This document shows positions 15,374 to 64,000 of a stretch of 64,000 nt of DNA, piece by piece. Each line of letters begins with the position of its first letter. Positions within the stretch are counted from its first letter, which is position 1. Origin of the DNA: Endomicrobiales bacterium (GTDB taxonomy: Bacteria > Elusimicrobiota > Endomicrobiia > Endomicrobiales > JALOBY01); NCBI GenBank assembly GCA_963796955.1, contig CAWCNJ010000005.1, forward strand, positions 32,001-96,000, written 5' to 3'. Made by a program: the position numbers and the translations under genes. Under the pieces are notes generated by a model. It was given only the letters and a program-made list of their open reading frames with translations, was not told the DNA's origin and did not search any database.

Positions 15374-15384
15374 TAAAAATCTAA

Positions 15385-15558: not shown

Positions 15559-18557
<2,999 letters not shown>

Positions 18558-18753
18558 TATTTTTTAATCCTGCATACTCGCAGAACTGTACTGGACTTGA
18601 TTAAACTAATTGCGGTCAATTACTTCTAGATTACTTCGTGTGTTTTGACGCTGATTACTTAATTACAGACGTTTTGCTGATAAGATTCGTGTAGAGATTC
18701 TGCTCCCACTTCCAGAAGGGAATTACGCGATTCACCTTAGAATTTGCCTTGAA

Positions 18754-18766
18754 TTTTCAAAGAACA
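18754..18766 (-). promoter_or_regulatory. Spacer boxA antitermination element
   Basis: TGTTCTTTGAAAA on the minus strand between tRNA-Ala and 23S. Confidence 0.7.
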
Positions 18767-18804
18767 GAAATTATTTTGCCGAGTTGTCTACGATCCCTAA
18801 GGTG

Positions 18805-18877
18805 TGGAGCTAGCGAGGCTCGAACCGCTGACCTCCTGCTTGCAAAGCAGGCGCTCTCCCAGCTGAGCTACAGCCCT
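18805..18877 (-). tRNA. tRNA-Ala(TGC), with a few imperfect positions
   Basis: GGGCTGTAGCTCAGCTGGGAGAGCGCCTGCTTTGCAAGCAGG...GGTTCGAG in the rrn spacer. Confidence 0.9.
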
Positions 18878-18911
18878 ACATGCCTTACCGATTTCATTCG
18901 CTGATCAGAAC

Positions 18912-18988
18912 TGGTGGGCCTAGGATGGAGTTGAACCACGACCTCACCCTTATCAAGCGTGCGCTCTAACCAACTGAGCTATGGGCCC
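18912..18988 (-). tRNA. tRNA-Ile(GAT), with a few imperfect positions
   Basis: GGGCCCATAGCTCAGTTGGTTAGAGCGCACGCTTGATAAGGGTG...CCA. Confidence 0.9.
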
Positions 18989-19120
18989 ATACTATGCAGT
19001 TCGCATTAAACCCTACTGAAGCCACTATACTTATGTAATTTATTTATGCAGGCAGATAGCACACCCTGAACGCTAGATTAAAGGATCGACCTATATACTC
19101 CTCGCCGAAGCGGGAAAGGA

Positions 19121-20676
<1,556 letters not shown>

Positions 20677-20822
20677 AAATGGCTAGTTGATACTTAACTT
20701 ACTAATTTTGAGACTGGCCTTGATCTACACTTCTGTTTTTAGACATGGTCTCTAGATAGAAACCAGGTCCGCAGATAAGGGGTGCTTATCTGCCTGCATT
20801 TATTACATAATATGTATGTGTC

Positions 20823-44375: not shown

Positions 44376-44397
44376 TTTATAATTCAGATTGGCCGTG

Positions 44398-45798
44398 CTA
44401 TTTCTTTCCAAGATCCCGTAGCGTAAGAAGGATGCTTCCATCTTGTTGAGTTCTTCTTTGATCAAACAATTCTATTGCCTTTTGCTCTATTAGCTTTCTG
44501 TTTGCTTCAAAAATACTGTCAGGTTCATTACTCGATTGATCATAATCTCTAAGGTCATTTCCATATACCTTACATTTTACTAACCTGTTTTCGATTTCTA
44601 TTGTGAATTCGAAAATATCAGACAATGAATTATGAAATACTTTCATATATTTCTTTTTTCCAGCCTGTAAAACACATTCTTTTTTTATCGTGAGCAACTT
44701 ATCTTGACTAAGCCTTTCGCCGTCCATTTTCACTCCGCCCTGTTCGATTAACCGCCTTGCCTCGTTCTTGGTTCCAACTAAACCAGAATTAACGAGCAAA
44801 TCGACAAGCTTAATCTGCTCGACGCCACAATTATATTTCTCCATTGTTTCTGGCATCTCTTTCTTGCTGAAGACGTTGTCGAAATCCTGGCGCGCGGCTT
44901 TTGCGGCCTCAGCGCCGTGGTAGCGAGCGGTTATCAGCTCACCCAGGTTGGCCTTGGCTTCACGTGGGTGCAGCGCTTTCACCGCTGGCATATCTTCTTC
45001 TGTCAGCAGCTCGTAGTATTTGTACATTAATATATCAGATATAGACATCAGCTTGCCGAACATATCTTTCGGCGTATCATTCAGGGCGATGTAATTGCCG
45101 TACGATTTGGACATCTTGCGAACGCCGTCGGTGCCTTCAAGCAGCGGCATGGTAATGATAACCTGCGGCTCCTGCGCGTTATCCCGCTGGAAATCGCGGC
45201 CCATAAGCAGGTTGAATTTCTGGTCGTTGCCGCCCATCTCGATATCGGCTTTCACCGCAACGGAATCGTAGCCCTGCAACAGCGGATAGAGGAATTCCAC
45301 GATGCTGATCGGCTGGCCGCTCTTGTAACGCTTCTCAAAATCATCGCGCTCCAGCATTCTGGAAACCGTGCTTTGGGAGGCAAGCTTCAGCATGCCCTCG
45401 GCGCCAAGAGGTTTCAGCCAGGTGCTGTTGAAAACCACCTCGGTCTTGCTGCGATCGAGGACGCGAAACACCTGGTCCTGATACGTTTCAATATTGGCCG
45501 CAATAGCTTCTTCGCTCAACATCGGGCGCGTTTCCGAGCGGCCGGAGGGATCGCCGATACGGGCGGTAAAATCGCCGATAAGGAAAACGACCTTATGGCC
45601 CAGATCCTGAAACAGCTTTAGTTTGTTCAGCAGCACGGTGTGGCCCAGGTGAATGTCGGGGGAGGTAGGATCAACGCCCATCTTAACGCGCAGAGGAATG
45701 CCTTTAGCGAGTTTACGCTTAAGTTCCTCTTCAGAGATAAGGTCGGTGCAGCCGCGCTTTATACGGGCGATATCGGAATTTATTTTATGTGATAGCAT
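44398..45798 (-). CDS. tyrS: Tyrosine--tRNA ligase with a ~79-aa C-terminal extension
   Basis: [17 protein letters not shown] and an S4 domain ([11 protein letters not shown]...QAGKKK), then extra sequence. Confidence 0.95.
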
Positions 45799-45801: not shown

Positions 45802-47787
45802 TTATAATTTAAAGCCTGCGATAGCCCCTTGCAACAGCTTCGCGGTATTGGAGAGCTCGTTGGTAACGGAGGCTATCTCTTCTATAGCCGCGGTCTGTTC
45901 TTCGGAGCTGGCGGCGGCCTCTTCGGAGCTGGCGGCTGTCTCTTCGGCAGCGGAAGCTATCTCCGATATCTGCTGCACCATTTCCTGAACGCGGTTCAAT
46001 ATTTCTTTGAACTGCGTGCTGGAATCCTGGGTAAGGCCGGCACCTTCGTTTATAGCTACCTGGCCTTTTTTCACGGAGATAACGGCGGTACCCGTCTCTT
46101 CCTGCACTTCCTTGATGATGCGGGCGATCTCCTGGGCGGAATGTGCCGAGCTTTCAGCCAGCTTGCGGACTTCGTCGGCAACCACCGCGAAACCATGGCC
46201 CGCCTCGCCTGCGCGCGCCGCTTCGATGGCCGCGTTCAGCGACAACAGGTTCGTCTGATCGGCGATCTTTGTGATAACGCTCACTATTTCGCCGATCTGA
46301 GTGGAGCGCGTGGCAAGGCCGTTCATTGCGGTGGCCGAACCCTGCTCAACGTCGCGGATAGCCTGGATTTTTTCTACCAGTTTTTTCATGGATTCCATGC
46401 CGGTGATACTCGCCTTATCAGCGGCAGAGGCGACCGATGCAGCGGAATGCGAGTTCTTGGCTACGGTGGCCGTTGAGGCCGAAATGTGGCTGACGGTAGT
46501 AGACAGCTGCGCGATGGTCTGCGTGGACTGCTGCGTGATCTGAGCAAGCGCCGTCGAGGAGGCTGCAAGGGTATTTGATTGCTCGATAACGCGCGAGATA
46601 AGATTCTTAAGATTTTCGGTCATTTGTTTAAAGGCCTGGCCCAGCTCGTCGCGGGTCGTGCGAGGGTTAACGGTCACGGAAAGATCGCCCTGCGCGATCT
46701 GCTTGGCCGCGTTCGACATCTGGTGCAGGTAGGCTATCATCTGGTTGGTAACCTTGCCGAGACGGTTAAAGATGTCTTCGCCGGTGTTTTCGTTCGCCAC
46801 CACGCCCAGATCCCCTTCGGCAAGTTTCTGGAAGAGGACAAAATATTCATCCAATAGCACTTTCTGTTTTTCGGTAAGGTTGCGAAGGTCCCCGGAGCTG
46901 CGCTCCAGGTCTTTTACCATTTTGTTGAACGACGTCGACAAAATATCCTTGTCCGAACGCACGCGCACCGTGGCCGTCAGGTCGTTGGAGGCCACGCGAT
47001 TAACGGAGGTAGCGATCTCCTTAAAATACGCGATCATTTCATTGAACACACGGGCCAGTTGAGCGATCTCGTCGTTACCGTGCGCCATTATTTCCTGCTG
47101 CGAAAGATCACCTTCTTCGCTGATCTTGCGCGCGACCACCATAACCCTGGTCAGGGGCGCTATAATATCGCGGCCTACTATAAGATTGTACGTGAATGCC
47201 CCGCCGACTAGCACCAGCAGCCCTGCAAGTACCAGCAGCAGGACTATGGTGAACACCACCGTCGTAATGCTCTTGCGGGAAAACCCGATACACAGAACAC
47301 CTATCTTCTGGCCCGCCGACATAACCGGCACCGCCACATCGCTTACCCCGGCAATAGAAGACCGTGCCATGACCGTAATAGCCGAAACACCCATGATCTC
47401 GCGCTGCAGGTCCGTTTTGTTGAACAACGTATTGCGAAGGGCGTCGTCGGTTGAAGCCACGCATTTGCCCGAGACTTCCATAAGGGCGATATAGGAAACA
47501 TCCTTATCGCTTGCCTGGACCCCTTTAAAGGTCTGCGTCAGTTTATCGACGTCCGACGACATGGACGTGTCCATGGCATACGAGAGGGACGTAAGCGGGT
47601 CTGCGCAGGCAAGCGACAGGTTAGCCGTTACGGAGCGGGCTTTCTGCATGAATTCGTTGCGCAACGAGGAACTGGAAAGGCCTACGGCGATGCCGGCGAC
47701 CACGAGAATGGACAGCACGAAAATAACCGTGAAATACCCGATTATCTTCTGCTTAAGATCGAATTCTGAAAATTTTGGCAGCCCCAT
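45802..47787 (-). CDS. Methyl-accepting chemotaxis protein (2 TM, several HAMP domains)
   Basis: [42 protein letters not shown] motifs DEIAQL and DELGQAF. Confidence 0.95.
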
Positions 47788-47801
47788 GTGTATCCTCCTG
47801 A

Positions 47802-48710
47802 TTATCGGACAACGTCAGTGGCTTCTGAAACTGCTGAACCTGAAAGCTGAACGCCCAATTGAGTCGCGACCAGCGTGTTAAGAGAATAACGGGACTTGCG
47901 GGGACGCTGAGATTTAACCGTTCCCGGCTTTTCGCCGTTAAGGATGCGGGCTCCCAATTCACCGGCCTGACGGCCGATATCGCGGTAGTCACAATCTACC
48001 GATATAACCGCTCCGCCCTTTGTGAAAGCCAGCGCGAGGCCGATCACCGGAACCTTGTTTTTCTGACTCTCCAGCAGCAAGGTCTTTACCGCCTGTCCAA
48101 AATATACCTTGGTATCCAGTATCATCATCACACAATCCGCCTGCCCGCCCATAAGCGCCTGTACGGCCGGAAGGAAGTCCATCTCGGAGGCAACACCGCG
48201 GCCTACTGCCTTCAAACCCACGGCACTACAGGCGGCCGATATCTCATCAAAACTCGCTTGATTGTCCGGCGAATACAACACACCGATGCGCTTGACTGAC
48301 GGCAGCACCGCTTTTACCCGTTCCACACGCAGCATGGGGGGAATATCAACCGAAACGCCGGTAGCGTTCGCCGTATCGTGCTCCGGGTTATTGGAAACCA
48401 ATGTGTACACACCCGGTATTGCAGCCAATTCTGATTTTAAAAGGCCGGATGCTTCACCGCCAACGGTAAGTACCAGATCCGGTTTTTGCGCCTGTACCTT
48501 TGAGGCAACCGTCGCAGAATCCTGCTCTTTCAGACTATAGATCACCGGCTGCCCGGGAAATCCTTTGTCGGAAAGAGCTGAACAAAATCCGTCCTTCAGG
48601 GCTTGCACGGAATCATTATTAAGCGAAAGAATAACGGCCACCGATTTCGCCTGTACCTGCGAGACCGCTGCACAGAAGACTATTGAACATATGATCAGTT
48701 TACGGATCAT
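47802..48710 (-). CDS. Periplasmic substrate-binding protein (ABC_sub_bind-like), paralog 2
   Basis: Signal peptide; ATGVS, KRIGVLY and [17 protein letters not shown]. Confidence 0.85.
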
Positions 48711-48743
48711 CCTGGAACTCTCCCGGGCGCAAGCTCTTTCTTT

Positions 48744-49649
48744 TTACCTAACTACTTCTGAAGCGCCTGACACAGCAGAACCGGCAAGGGATTTCCCCAG
48801 CTGGGTTATCATCTGCATGTTAAGGGAGTACTGGGCCTTGCGCGGTCTCTGGGACCTGATAGCAGAAGGTTTTTCTCCCTTCAGGATGCGGGCGGCGATC
48901 TCCCCTGCCTGGCGGCCAAGGTCATGATAATCGCAGTCAACCGACATTGCGGCACCGGCCTTGGTGAACATCATGGACAAGCCGACAACCGGCACTTTAT
49001 TTTTCAGGCTTTCCAGCAGCATCGTTTTAACCGACTGTCCGAAATATACCTTCGTATCGATTATCATCAGAATGCAATCGGCCTGGCCTCCCATAAGCGC
49101 CTGCACAGCCGGCAGAAAATCGCCTTCCGTTGCCACGCTGCGGCCCACGATCGCAAGGCCGGCAGACTTGCCGGCGGCAGCGATCTCATCAAAATTCTGA
49201 GCGGTGGCCTGCGAGTACAACACACCAATGCGCTTGACATCCGGCAATACGGACTTGACGAGCTCAAGGCGCAGCTGGGGCGGCACGTCTATTGATATGC
49301 CGGTTAAATTCGCGGCGTCGAATTCAGCATTATTCGTTACTATGGTGTACACACCCGGGATCCCCTGCAGGGACTTTACCAGTTTTGCGGCTTCACTGCC
49401 GACGGCCAGGGCCATGACAGGGGCTTGCGCCTGCACCAGAGAGGTGATCGTGGCCGCATCCTTTTCCTTCAGATTATAGACGGTTGGTTGTTCTGCAAAA
49501 GACCGGTCGGCCAGGGTAGATAAGAAACTTTCCTGCATGCCCTGCACCGAGTCGTTATTCATTGAAAGGATTATCGCGACACCGCCGGCACATGCCTGGG
49601 CGATGCCGATCAGCAGCACACATGCAGCCAAAAACAGAGAACGCACCAT
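48744..49649 (-). CDS. Periplasmic substrate-binding protein (ABC_sub_bind-like), paralog 1
   Basis: NLTGIS, KRIGVLY and GRQAGEIAARILKGEKP; clearly similar to its neighbour. Confidence 0.85.
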   Translation of the reverse strand: MVRSLFLAACVLLIGIAQACAGGVAIILSMNNDSVQGMQESFLSTLADRSFAEQPTVYNLKEKDAATITSLVQAQAPVMALAVGSEAAKLVKSLQGIPGVYTIVTNNAEFDAANLTGISIDVPPQLRLELVKSVLPDVKRIGVLYSQATAQNFDEIAAAGKSAGLAIVGRSVATEGDFLPAVQALMGGQADCILMIIDTKVYFGQSVKTMLLESLKNKVPVVGLSMMFTKAGAAMSVDCDYHDLGRQAGEIAARILKGEKPSAIRSQRPRKAQYSLNMQMITQLGKSLAGSAVSGASEVVR

Positions 49650-49658
49650 TACGGCCTC

Positions 49659-50141
49659 CTACACATTTTTAGATTTGCTTTCCAGATCTTCAATTATCAT
49701 TTCCAGGTTAAGCACTATCACAAGCTGCCCATCCATTTTTGCCACACCCCTCACAAAAGCGCTGTCCAGGGTACAAATAGATTTGGGAATAGCCTCGATG
49801 CGGTCGGCAGCTACCCGTATGACCTCTGAGACGGAATCCACTATCAACCCCACAGGCTGATCCCCGACGGAGGAAACAATTATCCGCGTGGCATCGCTTA
49901 CCTGCTTCTCGCCTAATTTGAAGTGTTTATACAGGTCCACTACCGGCACTATTTTTCCCCGGAGATTTATGACGCCTTCCAGGAATGCCGGCATTTTTGG
50001 GACGGGGGTTATTTCGGTTGGTTTTATTATTTCCTGCACCTGAACGATAGGTATACCGTAATGTTCGTTGAAGATCCTGGCAACGACCAGCTGGATCGCT
50101 TCATCTGCGCCTGCTATGCTTTTGTTTAACGTATTGTTCAC
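49659..50141 (-). CDS. cheW: Chemotaxis coupling protein CheW (GTG start inferred; alternative ATG at 50186)
   Basis: VQEII...ITPVP...GVINLRGKIVPVVDL...GLIVDSVSEV. Confidence 0.92.
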   Translation of the reverse strand: MNNTLNKSIAGADEAIQLVVARIFNEHYGIPIVQVQEIIKPTEITPVPKMPAFLEGVINLRGKIVPVVDLYKHFKLGEKQVSDATRIIVSSVGDQPVGLIVDSVSEVIRVAADRIEAIPKSICTLDSAFVRGVAKMDGQLVIVLNLEMIIEDLESKSKNV

Positions 50142-50269
50142 TCGATTCCCTGTAATTGAAGTATGCTCTTGATGTATATTATACATGCATTATCACAAAA
50201 TATCAATGAGAACTCAACAAGAAGTTGTAATTATGCAAAAGTGCCGCTCTATTTTGCTATAATAAAACA

Positions 50270-51356: not shown

Positions 51357-54300
51357 TTATCCTGCCCGCAGCACTTCTGCGACAGCCTCACTATCAAAGA
51401 TGGTTTGGTCTATGCGGATATTTTTCGGCAGTTTGCGCTCGGCGTAAGCGACGATCAGGGCGATCACTGTATTTATGTCCTGCGGTTTGGTTGAATCGTG
51501 CAGGCTGAACACGTTTTCCCGCAATTTGCGGTAGAATTCGGCGGTGTTCGTGAGTTCTTTCCTGGCCGCCAGATCAGGCGGTATTGCCGTACCTTTGGCC
51601 TCCAAAGCGCCGGCCTGCTGCTCGATCAGATCCTTGCCGAGGATCACCTCTAAATCGCCATCTACAAGACAATCATGTTCCCCATTCCCCAAACGGGATT
51701 TTGCGAACATTTTTTCTGCTAACGCAATTAAGAAGGCCTTCTCAAGCACCGGGTACTGCGCAGGATCTTCCTTCTGTATTTTCTCTAGATACGTTTTCAC
51801 AGCACCGCTTTCATGGATACCCATTGCGGTCTTTATGGCGGCAACATTTCCGGTTTTAGCGTCTTTCGCAAACTGTACCGTATCCGCAGGCATGGCTGGC
51901 AGAACATCGCGGTCCCAGGAGTAGGCTACATTTTTTACATAATTTTCCGACAATGTGTTGGCGCTGTACAGGCTGAGCACCGCCGTCTTAAGGATCTCTG
52001 CAAGTGCGGTCCGGTCGGTGATCGGACGATCACCGCCCTTGAGCAGCCCCTTAAGCTCGCTCAGCTTCAGGATCTTACACGGCGACTTGGAGCTGCCCAA
52101 CTTGCTGCGCAGGGCGGGAGCGCCGTCATAGCCGGTAATGTCTTCGGCTCGCATGGCCGCCTGATCGATGTAACGTATCAGCTTTTGTTGATCGCCCCTG
52201 CCGGAAATATAGCCATAAAATCCAAGAGCGCGATACCGGTCTGTAGTGCCAATGTCGGCGGTAAGGTCAACGCATATGCGCACCCCTCTTTTGCGGGCCA
52301 GTTCGACCAGCGCCTCTATCCGCTCGTCACTTATACCCCCGAACACTGCGGGCTCCACGATCATCTGCCCGTTGCCTGCTTTATTGAAAGCTTCAAGATT
52401 CGCCATAAAATCAGTAATATTCGCCTGACCGTCAAGGCGAATAAATATATTCTGCGGCAAAGCCTCGCTTTCAGCCTTTCTAATAACCTCAAGCTCGGCA
52501 AGCTTAACCGGAATAGCCTCTCTCCTGCTTAAACCCGGCACATCAAAGAAATCAGATGAAACGGCCACACTACCGTCTGACATGTTTTGTATAGACTTTT
52601 CTGATGCAGAATGATCAATGATAAACCCTGGGACAAAACCGCGGGAGCGCAGATCGGAGTTCGTCGCCATAAGCAGATCAGAAAGTTTTTCTTCCGCCCA
52701 TGCGTCACCTTTCATACCTGGTTCGTCCGTGATCGCACCATTGATGGTCTGCGCAACAACATGCGCGTCCGAACCCTCGGAAAACACCGTCAACGCCCCT
52801 TCTTTACTACATGCCCATATAGGTTTACCATTAACGTTTATCCCTAAATCCTGCCAATCATGATCCTCCCAGCCGTCCGGCCTTTTATCCATGCAATAAA
52901 TTTCAGTGCGCACCCGCCCTGCAGCATCGATCGACGCTGCACCAAAGTCCTTCACCGCCAGCTCTAACTCCGCCGCCTTTACAACATGCCAGTCAAGCGA
53001 CGCTTCAGCAGCCAGTTTAGGTATAAAGGAAGCAGGTGGCATTGGAATTTTTAATTGTTCGAAATTCAGCTTATTGGAAGCCTTACTCACGTCAATAAGA
53101 TCCGGGTTAGGGTTGCCGCTTTTAAAGCTTACGTAACCTGCCGTTTCTTTTTCGGAAAGTGTTGTCACTAATCTGCCGTCAAAGCTTTTCCAGACCCAGC
53201 CTTTTCTACCGCCCAATCGGCTATGCCCGACTACCAACGTACCGCCCGGAACCCCCATTCTCGACAGAAAATCCAGTACATCTCGTTTTGTAAACTCATT
53301 AATCGGATTATCCGTTTCCTCTCTTCCCCATATCAAGTCCTCTACCAGGCGGTTGGCACAATCCAGCGGATTTGCTTTCTCGATCGCCTGCGCATCCGCG
53401 TCGCCTTTTACCGGGCCGCCGTGCGCCGCGACAAAATCTTTCCCAAGTACCGCAAGCGGACTTAACCCAAGCGCGCTATTGTAGAGCTTTAAGTAATCCC
53501 GGCCATATTGCCGGATAAGCGCGTTTTCATACTCCGCAAATTGGTTAACCATTTTGAAATTAGTAGTTCGTCTGGGCCCCATCCGTATGTCCAGGTCGTG
53601 ATTGCCGGCGACGTAATACACCCCATCGGGGTTCTGTATGGTTAACTGCATTATGAACTGCATCGTTCCTATTGATGAGCCCATTTCTTCTATACCATAC
53701 AAATCTTCCCGGTGAACCGCATCGCCCAGGATTACGATAACCGCCTCCCCCCGCTGTATCTTGCCGAAGTTGTCATTGGTGTTAAGTATCTTTTGCAGGT
53801 TAGATAAGTTGGCGTGCAGGTCTCCGACAATTATTACTTCTTTTCCCTCAGGCAGTTTTGACAGGTCAACCAGAGCGCCGCGCTGGTATTTTCCCTGCCG
53901 CTCCTTAAGTACTTTGTTATACTCCTCAAGCTGGGCAATAGCCTCTTCTTTACCAAGCAGCGTTTTCTTTATTTCCTCTTCAAAGCGCAATTCATTTGCG
54001 AGCCGGTCCTCGTGGTAATTTCCATTTGACCTTATTTCTTCCAAGAGGAGGCCCAGATCAACCGACGAGGCACTACCGTCCGTGGTCAGCAGACTGTAGC
54101 GTATTGGTTTTTTAAAGGTCAGAACCCTGCCGATGTTCACGACGGTCGTTTTGATCAGTACGCCGAGATTATAATGCCAGTGGACGTTGACGATAGCTTC
54201 GGCTATGGCGTTTGAGAGCGCCGTATTGTCCAGCAGACCGGTCCATTCGGTTCCGGGTGGGATAAGGTCACGAACGACGGCCTCGATGTTTGCCAGTGCG

Positions 54301-57300
54301 CTAACGCGAGCGCGGCGATCGGGGCTTGCGAGCCATTGCGCGTATCTCATACCCTGCGGTTTGTGAGCGTCTATGAACGAATCGTATATCTTTGTATTGC
54401 CGCCGATCTTCAGCCCGATGGCGCACGATATCTGCACCAGCTCCGCGCGAGCCGCTCCCAATGGCCCGCGCTCGATAGATACCCAGGCAACGACGAACCC
54501 CCTGCCGAGCCAGAGAATATTGTGGTTGTAAATGAACCGCATGACAGGGTGTTTGGCGATATAATTAGTAACCGTTGCATCGGTGGTAAGCGGTCTTGGG
54601 AAGCCACTGTTATTGGGGTTACCTTTACCGGCTATCAAACCAAAAACTTCTCTTACTGCTCGGTTCATGTTATGTTTGGAAAGATCTATCTCTTGAAACA
54701 TGCGGGCCGCATCTGCATGCAGGGAACCGCCGGACCTGAAAGCATCGCTGCGGTCATAGAGAGAGTTTTCTATCAACTCTATCCAGGGCGTGAAGTAATA
54801 TTCGTTTGAGTCCACGCCCTTGCCGTTTGCTTTACAATATTCCAGGTGTGACGCTTTCAAGTCGCGCAGCAGCGTTGCGGTCCACACTGGCGGGTTGGCG
54901 CTTATCCACTCAAAATCGCCGGCTTGGGCTCCTTTTGCGTTGGCAAACAAAATCATGAGCGCGTCTGCAACTTTCTTTGACACGCCATTGAATTCTTCCG
55001 CAGAAAACTTTTTAACGATCGCCTTGAATACGCGTGAACGGCGTATAAGAACCGCTGTTTGCGCCGGCGACAGCGTTTCCAGCATCTTTAAGATCTGCGA
55101 GCGGTTGCGCAGACTATTAACGATAAGCGGGCTTTCTTTCCAATCTACTGCAAGCAGCGTACCGTACGTGTCCATTTGGCCATCCGAAAGAAATACATTG
55201 TAAAGGAAACTAATATCTTTTCTAAAACCCAGTTTCCCCATAATCCCAGTAAAGCTTGTTCTGACGTAATCCACTGCGAAACTGTCTAGGCTGTTAACCT
55301 GGGCGGCCAGTGCGACCACCGCGCCTAATTGAGTATCAATATCCTTTAAGCTTTCCCTGTCTGGTTGGCGAAGGTCTTGGGGTTGAACGATCCCGCCAGC
55401 TGCCCGCGCCTGCGCAGCGATCTCCGGCTCGTGCAGTATCGCGTCAAGGGTGGAACCGAACGAAGTTGTTGCATAGTATTCCGCTTCCTCTTTGTTTATC
55501 TCACGCCGTTCGTAAGCTGCACGAAGCAGATATTTACCCAGAAGTTTTTCAGGGTCCGCTTTATCCCAGCCCAAACGCGTATACTTTAAGGTGTAGCAAA
55601 ACAACATCAGTTTGGCGGGTTCTGAATATTTATCTATATACAGTGCATCGTTAAATAGAGCCCTTCTTCCTGTTTTGCCCCGGGTTTCGACCATAACATT
55701 CCCGGCATTAAAATCAGGGATAAATTCGCCCATGTTTCTGTCATACATAGGGAAGGCGTACCCTTTGTTGATCAATAGGTCAAAAGCATTGAACACTAAT
55801 TCCCATTCTTCATTCGACATTTGCCCTGTCTGGGCAGCTTTCTCAATATCAATACCGTCGATATATTCAACTTCCAGGTAACCACATTTTGAACCTGAGG
55901 TACTGCCAGCCCTGAATGCGCGTGGCACCGGGATGCCAGCATCGAACAATTCAACGTACGCATCTTTTTCTTTTTGCGCCCCTTGCTCTGAGCTATGCGG
56001 CATAACCCTTATCGCTATTGACCCATCCCTGTAGACCGCCGATAGCTTACCCGCGCCAAGTTTTGTAAGCGGCTTGCCATTAAGCACCAGATTCTGCCCA
56101 TCAAATTTATATGAATAAAGGGAGCGGATTAGATAACTTGATAGTTCCTGTGAAAAGCCTGCAAAATCTAAGAAAGGAAAAAGCCTGGCAATTGCATGGA
56201 CAAGGTTTTGGGAGATAATGGAAATTGATGAGTTAATTACTTCACTATCTTGCTTGGCGAATTCTTGAATGTTGACAAATTCCGGGGATAAGGCGGTCTC
56301 TGTTGCAAGCCATTGTTCGCAAGCATGCCACTGCTCGAACGGCGACAAGTCACCGCGAGGTTTATAATTGGCAAGGAAGTATTTCAGAACTTTTGCTTGA
56401 ATAGAGTTCGGTTCGTTAAGCGCCATATGCTCGGCCAGTTCGTGGGAGAATCGCGCAATTGCTTCGTTTGTATTTTTGTATGCTGCGAGGTCGACGAGCA
56501 GAACGTCTTTGTCCGCCTGAGCCTTGGCGAAGGAGGGCATATTGGCAAGGCCTATGCCATCATCGGTCGCGATAACAGCACCGGTGTGCCTGTTGAATTT
56601 TACGGTCTTTATCTCCGGCAGTGCCTTGGCTGTACGCAAAGCATTGAACTGGTCGAGCAGCCCTCTGGCAGCGGGCGAAATTTGAGCGATCTGGTCGAGG
56701 GTAAATTCTTCGATGCCATCGGGTTTTGAAGGATCGAAACCGAACCGCGCAAGCACGTTCTCTGCCAGTTTTGTCTCATCTTCGCAGGAAGGTACCATGC
56801 CGATTTGCTTAAGGGTCCGGATTGCTCCGGTTAATGCTGCACGGCTGAACCCAAGGAAACCGGATTTTATGTCAGCATGCGGCGCGACAGAGGTCTCATT
56901 CATGCTATCAGGCACAGCCCAGGTTCTTTGCGGTTCTCTGGAAGAGACTGCTGATTCATTGTTCTGGCTACGCCCTTTGATTTGAAAAACTTTCAGGGCG
57001 GGCCACCAAAGAATCGCAAAAAGTACGGCGCCGGCGATAATAAAGGGCATTGAAGGCACTGCGACGAACGCAATAAAAAGTACGGTGGCGCCGCACATCC
57101 AATATAATGAGCTCACAACAACAATGCCGGCTGAATTTTTAGACAGCTTGCCGGGCAACGACCAATTTAATGCCTTGAACGCAAATTTCGGAAGTTTTGA
57201 CTTAAGCATTGCCAGTACGTTCAGGTTGCTCTCCTGAAAGATCAGTGGCGTGAACATCCCCCATATCATGCCTCCTACTGTACTGACAAGATTTCTTTTG

Positions 57301-60300
57301 ACCGTATCGGGCTGAAGGAGAGAGACAAATATTATAACTGACCATGCGAAAAATGAAAGAAAAGTATAATCGGCGCTGTTTTTTCTCAGACGGTCAACCG
57401 ATTTGCTGTAGCTTAGCCCTTCTTTGAAATAGTATCCTGCGAACTGGTTCACAGGATTAAATAACAGGGGTGAAAGAATTATCTGGTTGACTAAGGTTTG
57501 CGAAATTTTCCCGTGAATAAAGTTTATAACCCATCCGTAAACGAACAGACCATATACCGGTGCAAAGAAAAGAGCTGCGGTAAGCGCGTACCGCAGGATA
57601 CGCCAGATGTCATTTTTAGCAGTTTTATGCAAAATATTTTTATCAATACGTTGCGATATATATGTGGCTACGATGGATGACAAAAACCCTTGTGTCATTA
57701 ACTGTGGTAATACGGATAATTTATAGTGGCCAAAAATGCTTGCGCCGTGAACACCAAGAACAAAATGGGCGAAAACAGCAAAAAGCCCAATAAGCGCCGT
57801 GTATATCAGAGATTCTTTTACCCTTACAGCTGTCGAAGATGGGGCCGGTTCAGGTTGAGGGGTCGCGTTTTCAGAATATTCGTATCGAAGTGGACTTAAG
57901 AAGGAATTCACCTTTGCCAAACCGTAGGCTTTAATCGTCTTTTTATATTGACTATGTGTATCACGATTTTCATATAAGCGTGCCAGCGCACTTATAACAT
58001 TATCGCGGTTGGCCCTGTAGAACGCGTTTTCATGCAGATAACCGTCAAATTTACGAATATAGTCTTGTTCGTTCAGCCCGGGCTTTTCCAGCAGATCATT
58101 TATATCATCACGTGTAAGCCTAAAGAACTCCAGGACGGCCAAAGCTGATACATCCCCATTCACTCTTTTATGGACACTGTTGACGATCTGCATATCAAAC
58201 CCGGCCCGATCTATATCCTCCGATCTTCGATAGTATCTGAGGAAGGAAGCTATTATAAAATTAGTGAGATTGACGGACGAGGTAGAACGCCACGACACAT
58301 CTTCGTGGATAAGATGCGTTTCGGGCGTCATAAGATACCCGAAAAGAAAGCCGCATTCCCTGATACGCCGTGCCCATTCAGAATTTCCATCGTTGTTGTG
58401 GTCGGGAGGAAAAGGCATGGCGGTAGCGATCTCATCCGGAACGACCATTAACATGCCATCCATTTCTGAAGAATAATATACCCCGTTGCCGAGAGGATAT
58501 TTGAGCTGATTCGACCGCGGCCTGAGCGGCTCGCCGCTCTCGAATACCGGCAGTGACGCAATGCCGATCTCCGGACGATCTTTTAGTAATTTGATCGCCC
58601 GCGGAATAGCGGGGCCCACCATTTTGACATCATCATCTAAATATACACGATATTTGCCTGATGAATGGATGGTTCCAAGATTCATGTTTACGCGAATATT
58701 ATTTATGTTCGAAACGACTATCTTAACCGGGTAGTGAACCGACTGGCACAGGCGTGTGAGAGCGATCTCGCGTTCCCTTGAAAAATTGTTCCTGTCAGCG
58801 ATCACCAACACCAGTTCAACGGCATGGTCCTTCGCAAGGACTTCCAATTCGTTCAAACGTCTTTCAAGGTTTTCGCTCCGGTTTGAAAGTGTAACCATAG
58901 CCACGCTTATCTCACGCGCCGCCCCATCCTTATTGAATGCTCTTACCTCTCCTTCCTGGTACTTCCGCACTTGCGCAAAATACTCTTCGGCTACCCGCAC
59001 GAATTCCGGCCTTCTTTGCCGGAATTCCTTGCGCGCGTCCTCCATTTTCATTGCATCGTCCTGGTCTAGCTTAACACGAACCGGCACAAATTCAATCTTG
59101 CCGTCGATAAGAACAGGCCAATCATTCGTTTCCATTCTTTGCTGCATCAATGTATATGCGATCTCGTCGCTTTCTGTTGTAGCTTTGGGAGCCGGAGCCT
59201 TAGGTGGCGTAGTTGTACTAAGGGACGTGGTTAAGTAATCAAGTAGTGCCGTAGATACCTGCGCAAGGTTGACGACCGGGAAGATGCGGACTAAGGCTTC
59301 GGCAAGGCTTTGGGCGATCGTTGGGAGGGAGGTTTCAATAAGTTTTGCATCTTGTTGGGCAAATTCTTTTAATGCATCAAAGTCTTGTTTTGAAATTCTG
59401 TTTTTGACAAGTATTCCCTGGATCTCGGGCGAATCGTGGGCAAGGCCGGAAATCCATTTTTGGCAGGCGTGCCACTGCTCAAAGCGTGTGACCGGGAATA
59501 TGTCGCCGCGGGCCTTATGGTAGCCAACGAAATACTCCAGTACCTTCGCCTGAATGGAATCTGGTTCATTAAGCGCCATATGCTCGGCCAGCTCGTGGGC
59601 AAAGCGGGCCAGCGCTTCTTCAGGGGAGCTGTAGCGGGCTGCGTCCATAGTGAGCGTTCCGGTATTGCCGGGCGCATCCATATTGGCTAGGCCCATGCCA
59701 TCTTTGGTGGCAATTATTTCGCCGGTGTGTTTGTTGAATTTAACGGTAGTTATCTCCGGCAGACCTTTGGCTTTGCGCAAGGCGTTGAATTGGTCGAGAA
59801 GACCTTTGGCAGCGGGCGAAATTTGAGCGATCTGGTCGAGGGTAAATTCTTCGATGCCATCGGGTTTTGAAGGATCGAAACCGAACCGCGCAAGCACGTT
59901 CTCTGCCAGTTTCGCCTCATCCTCACCTGAGGGCACTAGGCCAACCTGTTTGAGGGTCTGCATCGCGACTTGCAATGCTTTTTTACTAACACCTAGAAAT
60001 CCCCCTGCCGCATTTCGATGGGATCTTACCTCGTAACAACTAGCAGTGATATCATATCCGTTAAATGTTTCTGTCTGGTCCAGCGTTAGGGCAGAACCCA
60101 GAACAAATGCCTGGAACGCCGATTTTGTTATCTGCGCCCTGTTGCTGAGCGCGCCCTGCATATCAAGCGGTGCGAGCACTTTTACTTTCTTGCCCGTCTT
60201 CGCTTCGATCGTGCGGGCAATATCTTCAGCGTACCCGATCACCCCTTCCAGAATATCATCCGTGCTGTATTTTTCGGTGATGCGCGCTGAAGGGTCAATG

Positions 60301-63300
60301 GCGCGCAGTATCAGCACCGGGTTACCGCCAACCGTGTTTTCCAGTAACAGCGTGCTGCCCGCAAACTGCTCTTCTTCTCCTGAGCCTTCTGATAAAGCTA
60401 CCGCCGTTAAATTCTTCTTTTCCATGATGTTGCTGACCGCTGTGTAGCAGGCATCGCCAAGGTCCCCGGCCATCTCGCCGATAACTCCCTTTGTCGGGCG
60501 CGCGGTGATACGCAGCTTGTCGCCTTCTATTGTCCGGATCCTGCCCAGCTCTTCTTCAAATGTTTTTATCCACATCTTTTTTAAGATCGATCTCTTCATT
60601 TCATCCGGTGTTTGGGCAAGTACATGATCTTTCAGCATCACGTTCCTCATCTCTATCAAAGCCGCGACGCTTTGCACCGACAAACCCGATCGCACTGACA
60701 TCAGCAAACCGGTAGTGAATTCCTGATACTCGGGAGTTGATAGCAGTTGCGCCGCCATGATCGTGATCACCGCTGATGACGGCGTCAGTACCGCTGCGAG
60801 CTCGATGAGGTTGGTTGCATTTGCGACCGCCTGCTTGTCAGTGTCACTCAGCGCGGCTTCAGCGTATTCCGCCTTCAGTTTTGCCAGAACCTTCTCGGGC
60901 GTTTGCTCCTGTTTGACGATCTCTTCCGCCTTCAAAATCGCTTCCTTGAATTGATCAAAAGCGTCCGCGGCCACATTGGAGAATGTTGCCTTGCCGGCCT
61001 TCCGTACTTCAAAGGTATAAGAGATGTTTTCCGCGTACTCAGGTTTTAACGGCGGCACCATACCCGCCGCTTTTCGCGCATTGAAATTTCTGATAAATTG
61101 TGCGATATCCAATCCTCTTTTTGACCCATGCCCCCAGTTCGGCGCGCTGTTAAAACCTGTCACCATGCCGACAATGCCCATCATAAGGGGGCTGTATGTC
61201 CAGTTGTCGGGAATATCCATTTTATCGAACAACTGCCGGTTAATGCTGCGAACCAGTTCCGCCAATTGTCTTATGCCCGCTTCGCCCTGCTCCGTGATGC
61301 CCAGTGCCTTCATTTCCTGCGCCAGGTCCTCGTTCGGCTGCATCACCCGCCTCAGGCAGAGAAACATCTCGAAAAAGGTGCGGTTCGTCATAAAGCCAAA
61401 GCGCGGCAGTGCTTCCTTGAAATAGAGTTCCCATACGGTATCGCTATCTTGCGGCGTTAAACACATACCCTCGATCGCATTTGCCGCGCCTCTCAGGAAA
61501 CTTAACCGTTCATTCCGGCGCTGACTGCTGTACTGCTTTTTGACTATCTCGAACGATCGTGGACCGATCCCGCTGTTGCCGCAAACTCGTACCAGCTCAA
61601 GCTTGGCTTCCAGCTCTACCCCGTGCGAGGCGCCGATGAATTCCTGAAGCGCTTTCATATTTCCTGCTGTTGCAACAACAACAGGGATATCAACGAAAAC
61701 GTTGTAGGTGCTTTCATCGGAAAGCCGTTTGCCAAGTTCAGCAAAATACGTAAGGATTCCCCGGGCGGAATCATCGTCCTTTAAACTATACTCGCCTGCT
61801 TGTTTAACGAACGCCTCGTATTGTTCAAATATCTTTCCGGCAAGCTGACCGGCACCCAGTCCTGAATCAATAAAGGCCAGCAAAAAGGGCTGAGTCGAAC
61901 CGACAGTGTACGCCTTCGTGATAACAAACTGGCGGGCTGTATCATTGAATAAAAATCCCAGCAACGCATTTTGGCTTTCAATGGTTTTCGCCGTACGTAC
62001 GCGTTCATAGATCAGTTTGAGGCACTGGAATTGTGCCGTTGTCGGTTTACCGAAATACCAGCCGGTCATCATGTCGAACCAGCCGTCAACGTCAAGGGTT
62101 GGCATAAACTCTCCGGGAGCATCCATTGCCCGACACTGATGGGTTTTAAATGCAGCGCGCACGTTACAGATCATTTCGGCGGTCTTGAACCTGTTCAATG
62201 TTGCCATGCCGCACAGCGTTGCAAAAAGAAAGATATTTCCTGCATGCAATTCACCGCTTTCAACAAGAGCAATTATTCCTGTACCTGCTGTGCCAGCAAC
62301 CTGTTTCTCGTCAAGGAAACTAAACAAAACCGAAACAATATACAATGTTTCAGGTGTAACCACCTTATGATCAGCGAGTACTTTCAGGGCCTGGTAACGT
62401 GCAGCCGGGTCGTACACTGTAGAGTTTTTATTTGGAACCAACAGCTCGTTTACAACCGTAATGTTGTCTGGCCGAAGAACCCCGGCCTTAGCAAAGGCCC
62501 CCAGGGCTGCAAATGCATCTGTTTTGCAATCGTAATATTCCTCAAAATTTCCACACTGAATACGTTCGTACAGACCCCGCAGGGCCTGGAAATTGTCTTT
62601 GGAAATTGCGCCCGTGGCAAGTACAGCATTTAAAGCGGCAAAGGCTGGTTCGAACTTCTCTTTTCCAACTGTTTGCAGGAATTTTGCGCAATCATCAATG
62701 TTTGACTTGTCAAAGATGTGCAAATGCACCAACAGCTCGGCTGCCTGTCGGGCGAGGGGTTCGTCATTCATCTCGGCGTTCGCCAGAATAGCATCCACTG
62801 CATCCCGGTCGCGGGCGGCGAACATATCTTTGGTTGGCTGGCGGGCGAGAAATTCCTTCGCATTCGCACTGCCGTGTTCAGCAAGAAAATCCATTGCGTG
62901 CAGCAACGGACGCAAAGCCTCAATGCGCTCATCGTCATGGCCCGCTAGGCGGTTGATCAGCCGTTCCACCGTTTCAGTGCATTCACCCGCCGCGCCATCA
63001 CCATGCAAAAACACGCGGGCGCGCACTATGGCGAAGGCTTTTTCGGCGGTAGCCACATCCATCTCGGATGGAAGGTCCGCAAGTCCGCTAAACAACTTGT
63101 CCGCATCCTGCGGAGAAACCAGCATACCGGCTCGCCACAGGTGTTCCATCGCTTCAAAAAATGCCTGTTTACCGTCGTTCCCTGAGGATGTTGTCATCCA
63201 GGTCGTTAACTGGCCGAAAGGGAAGTGCGGTATATTACTTTCATTGTCTTGCCTGGCTCGTTTCGCCGCCGCCATCTCCGCGCCGGTGATCACGCCGGAT

Positions 63301-64000
63301 CGCACCAGCAACTCCAGGCTTTCGGCAGGAACCCGGCATTCCTTCAGCCAGTTGAACACAGGGTGAGCGACACCGCCAAGCAAGTTCTCAGCAACCGCCT
63401 GCGGCCACATACTTTCGACGGGCGACGACATCGTTCGCTCCTGCGACATGGCAATACCGGGGCGGTCATAATAATAACTCCACGCTCTTTCCACGATCTT
63501 GTTATCCATCAGGAAGCTCAGCAACCGAGCGGAAACAAGGCCGGTGTTTCCATGACGACCAGCCTGTTCCAGGCATTTTTGAACGACACCCGCCCTGCCG
63601 GCGTCATCCTCCAAAAGCAGCTTCTCGCCCAATTCAACCATGCCCGACTTGGTTAGTGTTTCCAGCGCCTGAAGGGAGGCGGCAATGTTTGTATCCGAGC
63701 TCTCTGCGTAAGACGAATATTCCAAATCTTTACCCAATGCCAGCTCACGCATTATATCGGCGCTCAATATCTCATTTGCATACCCGGCTTTTTTCAGCAT
63801 GGCTAGATACCATGCCGCATACCTGCGCGCAAAAGCATCTTTGGCGCCCAGCATCGTTTTCATGTCTTCAATAATATGCAACCGGGCGACATCATTTCCA
63901 TCGATCAGCTTCTTTTCAGCCAGCGTCAAGGCAAGCAATGAAGCATCTTCTTTCAGTTTGGGTTCTTTCAGGCATTCTTCCAGCATGGTTACGTATTTTT
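51357..64000 (-). CDS. Giant multidomain protein (at least 4209 aa; 5' end probably outside the window)
   Basis: Uninterrupted 12.6-kb ORF whose frame stays open to the window edge. Contains a GT2 DxD motif, a TM bundle, kinase-like and metallophosphoesterase motifs, and a duplicated module. Confidence 0.92.
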   Translation of the reverse strand, partial: KYVTMLEECLKEPKLKEDASLLALTLAEKKLIDGNDVARLHIIEDMKTMLGAKDAFARRYAAWYLAMLKKAGYANEILSADIMRELALGKDLEYSSYAESSDTNIAASLQALETLTKSGMVELGEKLLLEDDAGRAGVVQKCLEQAGRHGNTGLVSARLLSFLMDNKIVERAWSYYYDRPGIAMSQERTMSSPVESMWPQAVAENLLGGVAHPVFNWLKECRVPAESLELLVRSGVITGAEMAAAKRARQDNESNIPHFPFGQLTTWMTTSSGNDGKQAFFEAMEHLWRAGMLVSPQDADKLFSGLADLPSEMDVATAEKAFAIVRARVFLHGDGAAGECTETVERLINRLAGHDDERIEALRPLLHAMDFLAEHGSANAKEFLARQPTKDMFAARDRDAVDAILANAEMNDEPLARQAAELLVHLHIFDKSNIDDCAKFLQTVGKEKFEPAFAALNAVLATGAISKDNFQALRGLYERIQCGNFEEYYDCKTDAFAALGAFAKAGVLRPDNITVVNELLVPNKNSTVYDPAARYQALKVLADHKVVTPETLYIVSVLFSFLDEKQVAGTAGTGIIALVESGELHAGNIFLFATLCGMATLNRFKTAEMICNVRAAFKTHQCRAMDAPGEFMPTLDVDGWFDMMTGWYFGKPTTAQFQCLKLIYERVRTAKTIESQNALLGFLFNDTARQFVITKAYTVGSTQPFLLAFIDSGLGAGQLAGKIFEQYEAFVKQAGEYSLKDDDSARGILTYFAELGKRLSDESTYNVFVDIPVVVATAGNMKALQEFIGASHGVELEAKLELVRVCGNSGIGPRSFEIVKKQYSSQRRNERLSFLRGAANAIEGMCLTPQDSDTVWELYFKEALPRFGFMTNRTFFEMFLCLRRVMQPNEDLAQEMKALGITEQGEAGIRQLAELVRSINRQLFDKMDIPDNWTYSPLMMGIVGMVTGFNSAPNWGHGSKRGLDIAQFIRNFNARKAAGMVPPLKPEYAENISYTFEVRKAGKATFSNVAADAFDQFKEAILKAEEIVKQEQTPEKVLAKLKAEYAEAALSDTDKQAVANATNLIELAAVLTPSSAVITIMAAQLLSTPEYQEFTTGLLMSVRSGLSVQSVAALIEMRNVMLKDHVLAQTPDEMKRSILKKMWIKTFEEELGRIRTIEGDKLRITARPTKGVIGEMAGDLGDACYTAVSNIMEKKNLTAVALSEGSGEEEQFAGSTLLLENTVGGNPVLILRAIDPSARITEKYSTDDILEGVIGYAEDIARTIEAKTGKKVKVLAPLDMQGALSNRAQITKSAFQAFVLGSALTLDQTETFNGYDITASCYEVRSHRNAAGGFLGVSKKALQVAMQTLKQVGLVPSGEDEAKLAENVLARFGFDPSKPDGIEEFTLDQIAQISPAAKGLLDQFNALRKAKGLPEITTVKFNKHTGEIIATKDGMGLANMDAPGNTGTLTMDAARYSSPEEALARFAHELAEHMALNEPDSIQAKVLEYFVGYHKARGDIFPVTRFEQWHACQKWISGLAHDSPEIQGILVKNRISKQDFDALKEFAQQDAKLIETSLPTIAQSLAEALVRIFPVVNLAQVSTALLDYLTTSLSTTTPPKAPAPKATTESDEIAYTLMQQRMETNDWPVLIDGKIEFVPVRVKLDQDDAMKMEDARKEFRQRRPEFVRVAEEYFAQVRKYQEGEVRAFNKDGAAREISVAMVTLSNRSENLERRLNELEVLAKDHAVELVLVIADRNNFSREREIALTRLCQSVHYPVKIVVSNINNIRVNMNLGTIHSSGKYRVYLDDDVKMVGPAIPRAIKLLKDRPEIGIASLPVFESGEPLRPRSNQLKYPLGNGVYYSSEMDGMLMVVPDEIATAMPFPPDHNNDGNSEWARRIRECGFLFGYLMTPETHLIHEDVSWRSTSSVNLTNFIIASFLRYYRRSEDIDRAGFDMQIVNSVHKRVNGDVSALAVLEFFRLTRDDINDLLEKPGLNEQDYIRKFDGYLHENAFYRANRDNVISALARLYENRDTHSQYKKTIKAYGLAKVNSFLSPLRYEYSENATPQPEPAPSSTAVRVKESLIYTALIGLFAVFAHFVLGVHGASIFGHYKLSVLPQLMTQGFLSSIVATYISQRIDKNILHKTAKNDIWRILRYALTAALFFAPVYGLFVYGWVINFIHGKISQTLVNQIILSPLLFNPVNQFAGYYFKEGLSYSKSVDRLRKNSADYTFLSFFAWSVIIFVSLLQPDTVKRNLVSTVGGMIWGMFTPLIFQESNLNVLAMLKSKLPKFAFKALNWSLPGKLSKNSAGIVVVSSLYWMCGATVLFIAFVAVPSMPFIIAGAVLFAILWWPALKVFQIKGRSQNNESAVSSREPQRTWAVPDSMNETSVAPHADIKSGFLGFSRAALTGAIRTLKQIGMVPSCEDETKLAENVLARFGFDPSKPDGIEEFTLDQIAQISPAARGLLDQFNALRTAKALPEIKTVKFNRHTGAVIATDDGIGLANMPSFAKAQADKDVLLVDLAAYKNTNEAIARFSHELAEHMALNEPNSIQAKVLKYFLANYKPRGDLSPFEQWHACEQWLATETALSPEFVNIQEFAKQDSEVINSSISIISQNLVHAIARLFPFLDFAGFSQELSSYLIRSLYSYKFDGQNLVLNGKPLTKLGAGKLSAVYRDGSIAIRVMPHSSEQGAQKEKDAYVELFDAGIPVPRAFRAGSTSGSKCGYLEVEYIDGIDIEKAAQTGQMSNEEWELVFNAFDLLINKGYAFPMYDRNMGEFIPDFNAGNVMVETRGKTGRRALFNDALYIDKYSEPAKLMLFCYTLKYTRLGWDKADPEKLLGKYLLRAAYERREINKEEAEYYATTSFGSTLDAILHEPEIAAQARAAGGIVQPQDLRQPDRESLKDIDTQLGAVVALAAQVNSLDSFAVDYVRTSFTGIMGKLGFRKDISFLYNVFLSDGQMDTYGTLLAVDWKESPLIVNSLRNRSQILKMLETLSPAQTAVLIRRSRVFKAIVKKFSAEEFNGVSKKVADALMILFANAKGAQAGDFEWISANPPVWTATLLRDLKASHLEYCKANGKGVDSNEYYFTPWIELIENSLYDRSDAFRSGGSLHADAARMFQEIDLSKHNMNRAVREVFGLIAGKGNPNNSGFPRPLTTDATVTNYIAKHPVMRFIYNHNILWLGRGFVVAWVSIERGPLGAARAELVQISCAIGLKIGGNTKIYDSFIDAHKPQGMRYAQWLASPDRRARVSALANIEAVVRDLIPPGTEWTGLLDNTALSNAIAEAIVNVHWHYNLGVLIKTTVVNIGRVLTFKKPIRYSLLTTDGSASSVDLGLLLEEIRSNGNYHEDRLANELRFEEEIKKTLLGKEEAIAQLEEYNKVLKERQGKYQRGALVDLSKLPEGKEVIIVGDLHANLSNLQKILNTNDNFGKIQRGEAVIVILGDAVHREDLYGIEEMGSSIGTMQFIMQLTIQNPDGVYYVAGNHDLDIRMGPRRTTNFKMVNQFAEYENALIRQYGRDYLKLYNSALGLSPLAVLGKDFVAAHGGPVKGDADAQAIEKANPLDCANRLVEDLIWGREETDNPINEFTKRDVLDFLSRMGVPGGTLVVGHSRLGGRKGWVWKSFDGRLVTTLSEKETAGYVSFKSGNPNPDLIDVSKASNKLNFEQLKIPMPPASFIPKLAAEASLDWHVVKAAELELAVKDFGAASIDAAGRVRTEIYCMDKRPDGWEDHDWQDLGINVNGKPIWACSKEGALTVFSEGSDAHVVAQTINGAITDEPGMKGDAWAEEKLSDLLMATNSDLRSRGFVPGFIIDHSASEKSIQNMSDGSVAVSSDFFDVPGLSRREAIPVKLAELEVIRKAESEALPQNIFIRLDGQANITDFMANLEAFNKAGNGQMIVEPAVFGGISDERIEALVELARKRGVRICVDLTADIGTTDRYRALGFYGYISGRGDQQKLIRYIDQAAMRAEDITGYDGAPALRSKLGSSKSPCKILKLSELKGLLKGGDRPITDRTALAEILKTAVLSLYSANTLSENYVKNVAYSWDRDVLPAMPADTVQFAKDAKTGNVAAIKTAMGIHESGAVKTYLEKIQKEDPAQYPVLEKAFLIALAEKMFAKSRLGNGEHDCLVDGDLEVILGKDLIEQQAGALEAKGTAIPPDLAARKELTNTAEFYRKLRENVFSLHDSTKPQDINTVIALIVAYAERKLPKNIRIDQTIFDSEAVAEVLRAG
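56120..56862 (-). repeat. Internal repeat module, copy 2, of the giant protein
   Basis: GFLG...KLAENVLARFGFDPSKPDGIEEFTLDQIAQISPAA...HELAEHMALNEP...FEQWHAC. Confidence 0.9.
59220..60002 (-). repeat. Internal repeat module, copy 1, of the giant protein
   Basis: Same motifs as copy 2; 59807-59912 is identical to 56666-56771. Confidence 0.9.

Follow-up and report, generated by a model that had tools for sequence, protein, structure and literature searches.

Few phyla are as rich in huge proteins as Elusimicrobiota, and these proteins are uncharacterised and have lacked an orthologous-group assignment (Amaral and Devos). West-Roberts et al. (bioRxiv 10.1101/2023.11.21.568195) count it among the open questions whether giant bacterial proteins act whole or cut, and where. 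Archaeovorins and other giants of Omnitrophota string together glycosyltransferases, HAD hydrolases, GNAT, HD and radical SAM domains and glycolytic enzymes, and have been described with signal peptides, membrane segments and proposed autoproteolysis (bioRxiv 10.1101/2023.11.21.568195; Nielsen and Lui, bioRxiv 10.64898/2026.06.07.730766). Phage polyvalent proteins hold diverse enzymes per chain, with one to five interspersed zincin-like domains proposed to process it (Iyer et al. 2017, PMC5512222), and self-processing has been shown for MARTX toxins (Jang et al.). Here we describe a giant gene on the minus strand of a 64,000-nucleotide stretch of an Endomicrobiales genome (the window, G000:C5:32001-96000, where G000 is the source genome and C5 its contig). 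On the features tested, its product fails membership of all three groups. It represents a family that is predicted to consist of a signal peptide, a conserved head of 530 amino acids (aa), a variable string of enzymes and a conserved 560-aa tail; in this protein three copies of a 270-aa module are interspersed in the string.

Within the window, the minus-strand open reading frame (ORF) 51357-63998 runs for 4,213 codons without a stop. The original prediction of a giant multi-enzyme ORF of more than 4,200 aa was correct in that this is a single real frame, but the gene runs beyond the window: the frame stays open to C5:102844, giving 6,495 open codons in all. Counted from the first ATG after an upstream terminator, the protein has 6,486 aa and the gene occupies G000:C5:83357-102817 (minus strand, ~19.5 kb), starting 6.8 kb outside the window, which holds aa 2274-6486. 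An entry in a public representative library (P0006) also has 6,486 aa and the same three modules. That an assembly error fused separate genes is extremely improbable. Errors do exist in this assembly, in which further giant genes are split, but assembly errors break frames rather than join them, this frame is open throughout, and single ORFs spanning head to tail (1,788-9,302 aa) occur in independent genomes. The closest paralogue (G000:C4:265691-285538) is split into two ORFs of 3,501 and 3,065 codons, with the head in the first and the tail in the second, and the 2.1-Mb source genome contains 24 ORFs of more than 2,000 codons, several apparently frameshifted.

The protein belongs to a family of Endomicrobiales (Elusimicrobiota). 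Head matches were found at six further loci in G000 and, counting G000 itself, in 34 of the 41 genomes searched, a single genome having as many as 37; the tail matched in 19 of the 41, and the module profile in 9 of 301 genomes of the phylum, four of them weakly. By eye, 16 of the 33 tail matches outside G000 share an ORF with a head among the 150 head rows listed. Almost every named head-bearing record is titled Endomicrobiales, Endomicrobiaceae, Endomicrobia or Elusimicrobia. Of 279 loci, 79 were kept; the pattern used to find these included D80 and H82 but neither E110 nor H508. The head was not found in seven of the 41 genomes, including the sole genome of the same taxonomic family (99% complete), and occurs in four of eight small genomes of one genus, with at most four matches each. 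The family is expanded in many genomes, and its scarcity in these small ones hints at a tie to lifestyle.

The ends of these proteins are fixed. The middle is a different one in each relative examined and, in the giant protein, includes a domain of foreign base composition and a recombination-type tract between modules. Twenty relative regions were picked for their best head, module or tail match and their long ORFs compared with the giant protein. Common to them are only the head, the 200 aa after it, the module, the tail and three single domains (2H, the phosphoesterase and one unknown region, each shared once). Pfam searches of 17 relative ORFs gave other domain sets in ten, one marginal match in one and none in six, the cargo including CofD, radical SAM, PFK, starch synthase, HD, GNAT, deaminase, HATPase and LMW phosphatase. 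The same middle was not found in any relative examined; relatives with a fixed, known architecture, which would have spoken against the original prediction, did not appear, and a giant, signal-bearing multi-enzyme polyprotein of Elusimicrobiota is borne out. The third-position GC content (GC3) of the APH domain, 0.28, is lower than both the median (0.60) and the 5th percentile (0.42) of the genome, and this low GC3 fits recent in-frame capture. Moreover, module copies 1 and 2 share 106 identical nucleotides (56666-56771 and 59807-59912) inside ~75% identity; no identical run that involves any of the 14 other genes in the comparison is longer than 36 nt. Gene conversion is the simple reading of this tract, although an assembly effect may be another source. 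Recombination and in-frame capture are what the tract and this low-GC domain together suggest. It is rather unlikely that the middle is hypervariable bulk, a decoy or antigenic variation against phages, predators or hosts in which the enzymes are only folded filler. Such bulk would fit the lack of a shared middle, the foreign-GC insert, the number of heads per genome, the weak family scores and the altered kinase motifs, but the HAD, 2H, GT2 and phosphoesterase motifs are intact and similar enzyme classes recur in Omnitrophota giants.

The tail was modelled as alpha/beta, partial TIM-barrel-like and helical subdomains over 562 aa, so that the C-terminal helical domain seen at first is only one part of it. 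Tails end in AA or AG in 20 of 24 cases, compared with 11 of 904 ORFs, and the giant protein itself ends in Ala-Gly. A tmRNA was not found in G000.

Across 26 heads, the invariant columns include D80, H82, E110 and H508 (full-protein numbering). In an alignment of 117 rows (duplicates included), all 116 rows with a residue at position 110 have the Glu, and all 112 with one at position 508 have the His. The spacing from the His of D80-x-H82 to E110 is 28, equal to that in RRSP (His/Glu 3902/3930) and Bcr135 (85/113) (Jang et al.). A search with the ChaN family, PF04187, found long ORFs of other Elusimicrobiota, two above the curated cut-off; four loci found in this way match the head profile at E values of 1e-27 to 1e-36, three of them in ORFs of 1,630-4,034 aa. 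The head keeps the two-His, two-acid constellation of the TIKI/EreA/ChaN type, with Asp replacing the first Glu, and is a predicted protease. It shares this residue set and the 28-residue spacing with the TIKI, TraB-PrgY, EreA and ChaN proteins, but differs from them in the Asp, in a long insertion before the last His and in its place at the front of polyproteins. The Atlas cluster nearest to a head is mostly from Omnitrophota (score 0.90, taken as a lead only).

The two in-window repeat modules noted previously are real and 62% identical, but the whole gene has three. Eleven copies from five genomes are 20-62% identical, with invariant N, G, H145, E146, A, N, S, L, R, W, C and D. They carry an HExxE motif in which the His-Glu pair is present in 11 of 11, the last position is Glu in ten and Asp in one, and a downstream His is present in ten. 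In the confident model of the module (predicted local distance difference test, pLDDT, 83), residues 95-130 form strands, 136-154 the HExxE helix and 179-194 a helix that bears a His. This order agrees with that given for the zincin-like domains of polyvalent proteins: three-stranded sheet, active-site helix, second ligand helix (Iyer et al. 2017, PMC5512222). The modelled core apparently sits inside a small bundle or subdomain formed by the module's two ends (60-90 aligned residues, ~10-275). Weak BFVD rows (E 0.1-0.4) comprised LPD, M48, M61, M34 and zincin-fused proteins. Against 1.84 billion representatives, the module profile gave four strong matches, all of them giants of 1,870-7,422 aa (this protein included), and three marginal ones; it had no match in 50,697 phage records. 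To judge from the model, the module probably has a zincin-like core, and its role may be that of a zincin-like peptidase and not of a scaffold. The earlier label of scaffold is doubtful, given the invariant His, Glu, Arg, Trp, Cys and Asp around the HExxE helix. The C4 paralogue has a three-copy module of its own, with a G-x-I-G-F strand, HEP and a later His; it is loosely similar, without a match to the module profile.

Three results weigh against reading the head and module as peptidases. The head has no direct Pfam, PDB-sequence or significant hhalign match to TIKI, EreA or ChaN, and its link to them is only transitive; the module lacks the HEXXH and downstream Glu ligand of zincin-like metallopeptidases, having HExxE...H instead; and the module fold found no significant structural match in PDB or BFVD. 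The protein might instead be an uncut, membrane-tethered platform of the envelope, its modules structural spacers and its head acting on outside substrates, a possibility we regard as doubtful but serious. It would accommodate the internal hydrophobic bundle, the spacer-like way in which the module's first and last parts appear packed into one small subdomain in the model, the membrane helices or signals reported by Nielsen and Lui for 94% of Omnitrophota long proteins, and the precedent of N4 RNA polymerase and ArdC, which have zincin domains yet travel unprocessed (PMC5512222). However, invariant His, Glu, Arg, Cys and Asp in 11 diverged module copies go beyond the needs of a spacer, hydropathy at the cut-off applied shows no membrane segment in several of the family's ORFs or partial ORFs, and the ATP-dependent cargo would have no obvious substrate outside the cytoplasm.

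Extending the contig, as proposed originally, located both the N-terminus and a signal-like sequence there: a basic stretch, then a hydrophobic one, then Leu-Tyr-Ala, read by eye as a cleavable Sec signal. By hydropathy, the next strong hydrophobic segments come only at aa 3337 and 4338. Sec export of the giant protein is therefore likely, as judged from the sequence. We assign little weight to an arrangement in which the enzymes face the producer's own cytoplasm, through an N-terminal anchor or export of the head alone, as a metabolic or signalling assembly. The cargo classes are those of cytoplasmic enzymes, and Nielsen and Lui hold such cargo in Omnitrophota to fit inner-membrane anchoring, but the N-terminus reads as cleavable, the strong hydrophobic segments lie far downstream at the positions given, and the cargo forms no coherent pathway.

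Upstream of the giant gene lies a 166-aa leader ORF, the stop codon of which falls in the loop of the terminator hairpin; the U-tract ends 10 nt before the giant-gene ATG. The layout was surveyed at 87 distinct heads with enough upstream DNA (4 of 91 were dropped as too short; our own locus, added by hand, makes 88). A terminator lies within 150 nt upstream in 56 of 87, compared with 6-10 in five shuffles, and within 30 nt in 38 of 88, compared with 22 of 829 control ORFs (three of them family members). A terminator within 30 nt of the start leaves no room for a promoter behind it. Among the 57 heads with a terminator, the leader stops in the hairpin in 34 and up to 15 nt before it in 6, reads through past it in 12 and never stops 16 nt or more before it; five have no leader by the rule used. 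By contrast, ordinary terminators lie at least 16 nt after the stop in 57 of 67 cases in G000 and in 14 of 14 in relatives. The leaders (155-205 aa) have an N-terminal hydrophobic signal and little conserved sequence except in the C-terminal part, and in each of the 46 measured the distance from the end of the hydrophobic segment to the hairpin is 12-22 codons. No terminator was seen in 31 heads, several of which directly follow the tail of another long ORF. Among three tandem giants at G000:C6:1-41734, two heads come directly after the L-x-A-A end of the preceding gene, with no leader or terminator found. At G000:C7:33899-62483, an unrelated giant without the head has a small hydrophobic ORF upstream that crosses a hairpin-like stretch and reaches the start of the giant; genes outside the head-bearing family may therefore share the leader layout. 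A 202-aa lipoprotein-like ORF (L002:7475-8083) stands directly upstream of our leader, and the C4 paralogue likewise has a lipoprotein-like ORF (both read by eye).

The Escherichia coli pyrBI and rph-pyrE attenuators are ribosome-occluded intrinsic terminators. As in these and in engineered tR2 (PMC4824070), the leader ORF here overlaps an intrinsic terminator, and ribosomes of E. coli repress almost fully a terminator that follows the stop codon by a few bases (Li et al.). By analogy, ribosome-dependent read-through of the terminator is likely. The leaders also resemble secretion monitors (SecM, VemP and the RQH family, PMC10987492) in their N-terminal hydrophobic signal and in the scarcity of conserved sequence outside the C-terminal part. 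They differ in having no conserved RAPP-like motif (from the list of RAPP-type arrest leaders, Fujiwara et al.; RAPP, HAPP, QAPP and RGSP each occur in 1 of 51 leaders, and any PP in 9 of 51) and no Rfam match. Unlike known attenuators and leaders, this one would gate transcription of a giant secreted-protein gene.

These observations suggest a route from leader to target. The 19.5-kb gene would be transcribed only when the ribosome translating the leader covers the hairpin, and the leader's signal-like N-terminus and fixed-distance hydrophobic segment would tie passage of the terminator to its engaging the export machinery. The protein would then be exported through its N-terminal signal, and the TIKI-like head, which every member has by definition, would release pieces by proteolysis; the HExxE module, which occurs sporadically, would be a second cutter or the site of cutting. 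Most tentatively, the released kinases and glycosyltransferase would act in the cytoplasm of another cell, since they need ATP or nucleotide sugars and the exporter's own cytoplasm has been left; the Ala-Ala/Gly C-terminus could serve as a handle or degradation tag. Self-processing has slightly the better of the balance, and action on another cell is about evenly poised. Taken together, we tentatively favour, at somewhat less than even confidence, a Sec-exported cassette with fixed head and tail that is cut by its own head, and perhaps by the module, into enzymes acting on a partner, host or prey cell. A bolder version seems improbable: an undescribed self-processing delivery system of Endomicrobia. 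In it, transcription would be permitted by a leader that senses secretion, and the exported chain would be cut into captured enzymes by the TIKI-like head and by modules of a new HExxE zincin-like class; the repeated modules would also serve as recombination handles through which cargo is reshuffled, and an unfoldase would grip the Ala-Ala tail and pull the chain into the recipient. The fixed parts bring the whole-or-cut question down to small units, namely a candidate protease of 530 aa, the 270-aa module, the 560-aa tail and a control element of 500 nt, and the smallest natural family members have only ~1,800 aa.

The suggestion of a MARTX-like or polyprotein array holds for the polyprotein-type enzyme array but not for MARTX. 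The giant protein has no GGxGxD motif, 6.4% Gly and no terminal self-repeats, and a MARTX toxin was rejected. No Pfam match to the C80 cysteine protease was found in it; none was found in G000 either, where the search controls also gave nothing, so that this negative is weak alone. Like MARTX, it has a variable enzyme array between conserved ends, and the self-processing shown in MARTX is proposed for it; unlike MARTX, its N-terminal signal argues for Sec instead of type I secretion, and its TIKI-like domain is a fixed head, whereas RRSP is cargo. With archaeovorins it shares a giant chromosomal ORF with glycosyltransferase, hydrolase and other enzyme cargo and membrane segments, but its family belongs to another phylum, measures ~2-12 kaa rather than >30 kaa and gives, in the giant protein, no SecA-like, C39 or S8 match. 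The only ORF of G000 that matches PF07517 (SecA DEAD domain) has 891 aa and lies on a different contig, and no type II secretion, pilus or PilZ genes were seen beside the giant gene; two secretins lie on contig C8. The passages of the two Omnitrophota reports that were compared do not mention a conserved TIKI-like head, tail or leader-terminator; 'tiki' is absent from both main texts, and 'attenuat' from that of Nielsen and Lui. With polyvalent proteins it shares enzymes interspersed with candidate zincin-like domains in one chain; it differs in being chromosomal, signal-bearing and set among rRNA and tRNA-synthetase genes, in the module's HExxE...H in place of HEXXH...E and in having no phage match. 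By analogy, the giant protein would work like archaeovorins and phage polyvalent proteins. A literature search, with the preprints covered short of their supplements, found no paper on the family's head, module, tail or leader.

The features are listed from leader to tail in Table 1. The original prediction placed the GT2, membrane bundle, kinase and metallophosphoesterase correctly, as motifs and Pfam agree, but its alternation of scaffold and effector did not hold: no module separates APH, HAD and 2H from one another, and none stands between the kinase, the two unknown regions and the phosphoesterase. Three modules among ~12 domains are interspersion, not alternation. Pfam searches used two halves of the protein (E up to 0.1) and 14 segments (E up to 1); the GT2 and in-window APH-like matches are under the curated cut-offs. 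The in-window kinase-like domain has Arg where, we presume, the ATP-binding Lys would be expected. Between module 0 and the alpha/beta domain lie ~1,370 aa without assignment, which the original prediction took, in their in-window part, for a helical, solenoid-like sequence. Here aa 2280-3420 gave no significant Pfam match, either to the HEAT repeats of archaeovorins or to other families, and the region gave no NCBIfam match and no detectable internal repeat. The homologues of the alpha/beta domain (window 59988-60680), P0013 and P0014, are short and metagenomic and keep GE(L/M)A(A/G)DIGDACY.

Table 1. Features of the giant gene and its leader (C5, contig positions; all other coordinates, window positions).
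Feature	Residues (aa)	Coordinates	Strand	Remarks
Leader ORF		C5:102845-103345		outside window
Terminator		C5:102827-102861		outside window
Signal-like sequence and TIKI/EreA/ChaN-like head	1-560	C5:101138-102817		outside window
Low-GC APH-like kinase	770-1120	C5:99458-100510		outside window; Pfam E 3e-8
HAD-like (HAD-IIB-like) phosphatase	1165-1520	C5:98258-99325		outside window; Pfam below cut-off, motifs intact
2H phosphoesterase-like domain	1570-1765	C5:97523-98110		outside window; Pfam below cut-off, motifs intact
Module copy 0	1778-2046	C5:96680-97486		outside window
Region without family match	2274-3430 in window	60528..64000	-	begins at ~aa 2060
Alpha/beta-type domain		60018..60530	-	two unnamed metagenomic homologues, 40-43% identity
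Module copy 1	3601-3869	59211..60017	-	HELAE at 59597-59583; Pro/Thr linker next
GT2-like glycosyltransferase and following region		57888..59120	-	Pfam match ~58491-58883, E 0.001; VYLDDD at 58637
Hydrophobic bundle		57009..57806	-	at least 4 predicted membrane segments (hydropathy)
Module copy 2	4649-4902	56112..56873	-	
Kinase-like domain		55518..56090	-	GAG loop, DFNAGN, FND (motifs at 56057, 55715, 55655); APH-like Pfam E 0.002
Two unknown regions		54048..55520	-	second (54048-54650) recurs in C4 paralogue and L096
Calcineurin-like metallophosphoesterase		53058..54020	-	Pfam Metallophos E 6e-12; DLH, GDAVH, GNHD, HG, GHSR (motifs 53822-53228)
Conserved tail	5925-6486	51360..53045	-	alpha/beta, partial TIM-barrel-like, helical subdomains; ends Ala-Gly

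The giant gene is neighboured by rmuC, cheW, a methyl-accepting chemotaxis protein (MCP) gene and tyrS, and on the upstream side by tRNA-Glu and a serS-like gene. Downstream, past the convergent rmuC, window 45802-50186 encodes CheW, two tandem ABC-type substrate-binding proteins and the MCP. Between tyrS and a gene for a U32 peptidase, where GC is low (0.35), lies a 1,080-aa Eco57I-like restriction-modification gene (window 41223-44465), and window 14472-20678 holds an rRNA operon, two tRNAs and an L10 leader. About 5 kb upstream of the giant gene lies a divergent TolC/RND-like cluster (L002:9944-20000), read by eye as a TPR and SpoIID-like protein, a TolC-like protein, a membrane-fusion protein and two AcrB-like genes, one of which has a long Pro/Glu-rich tail.
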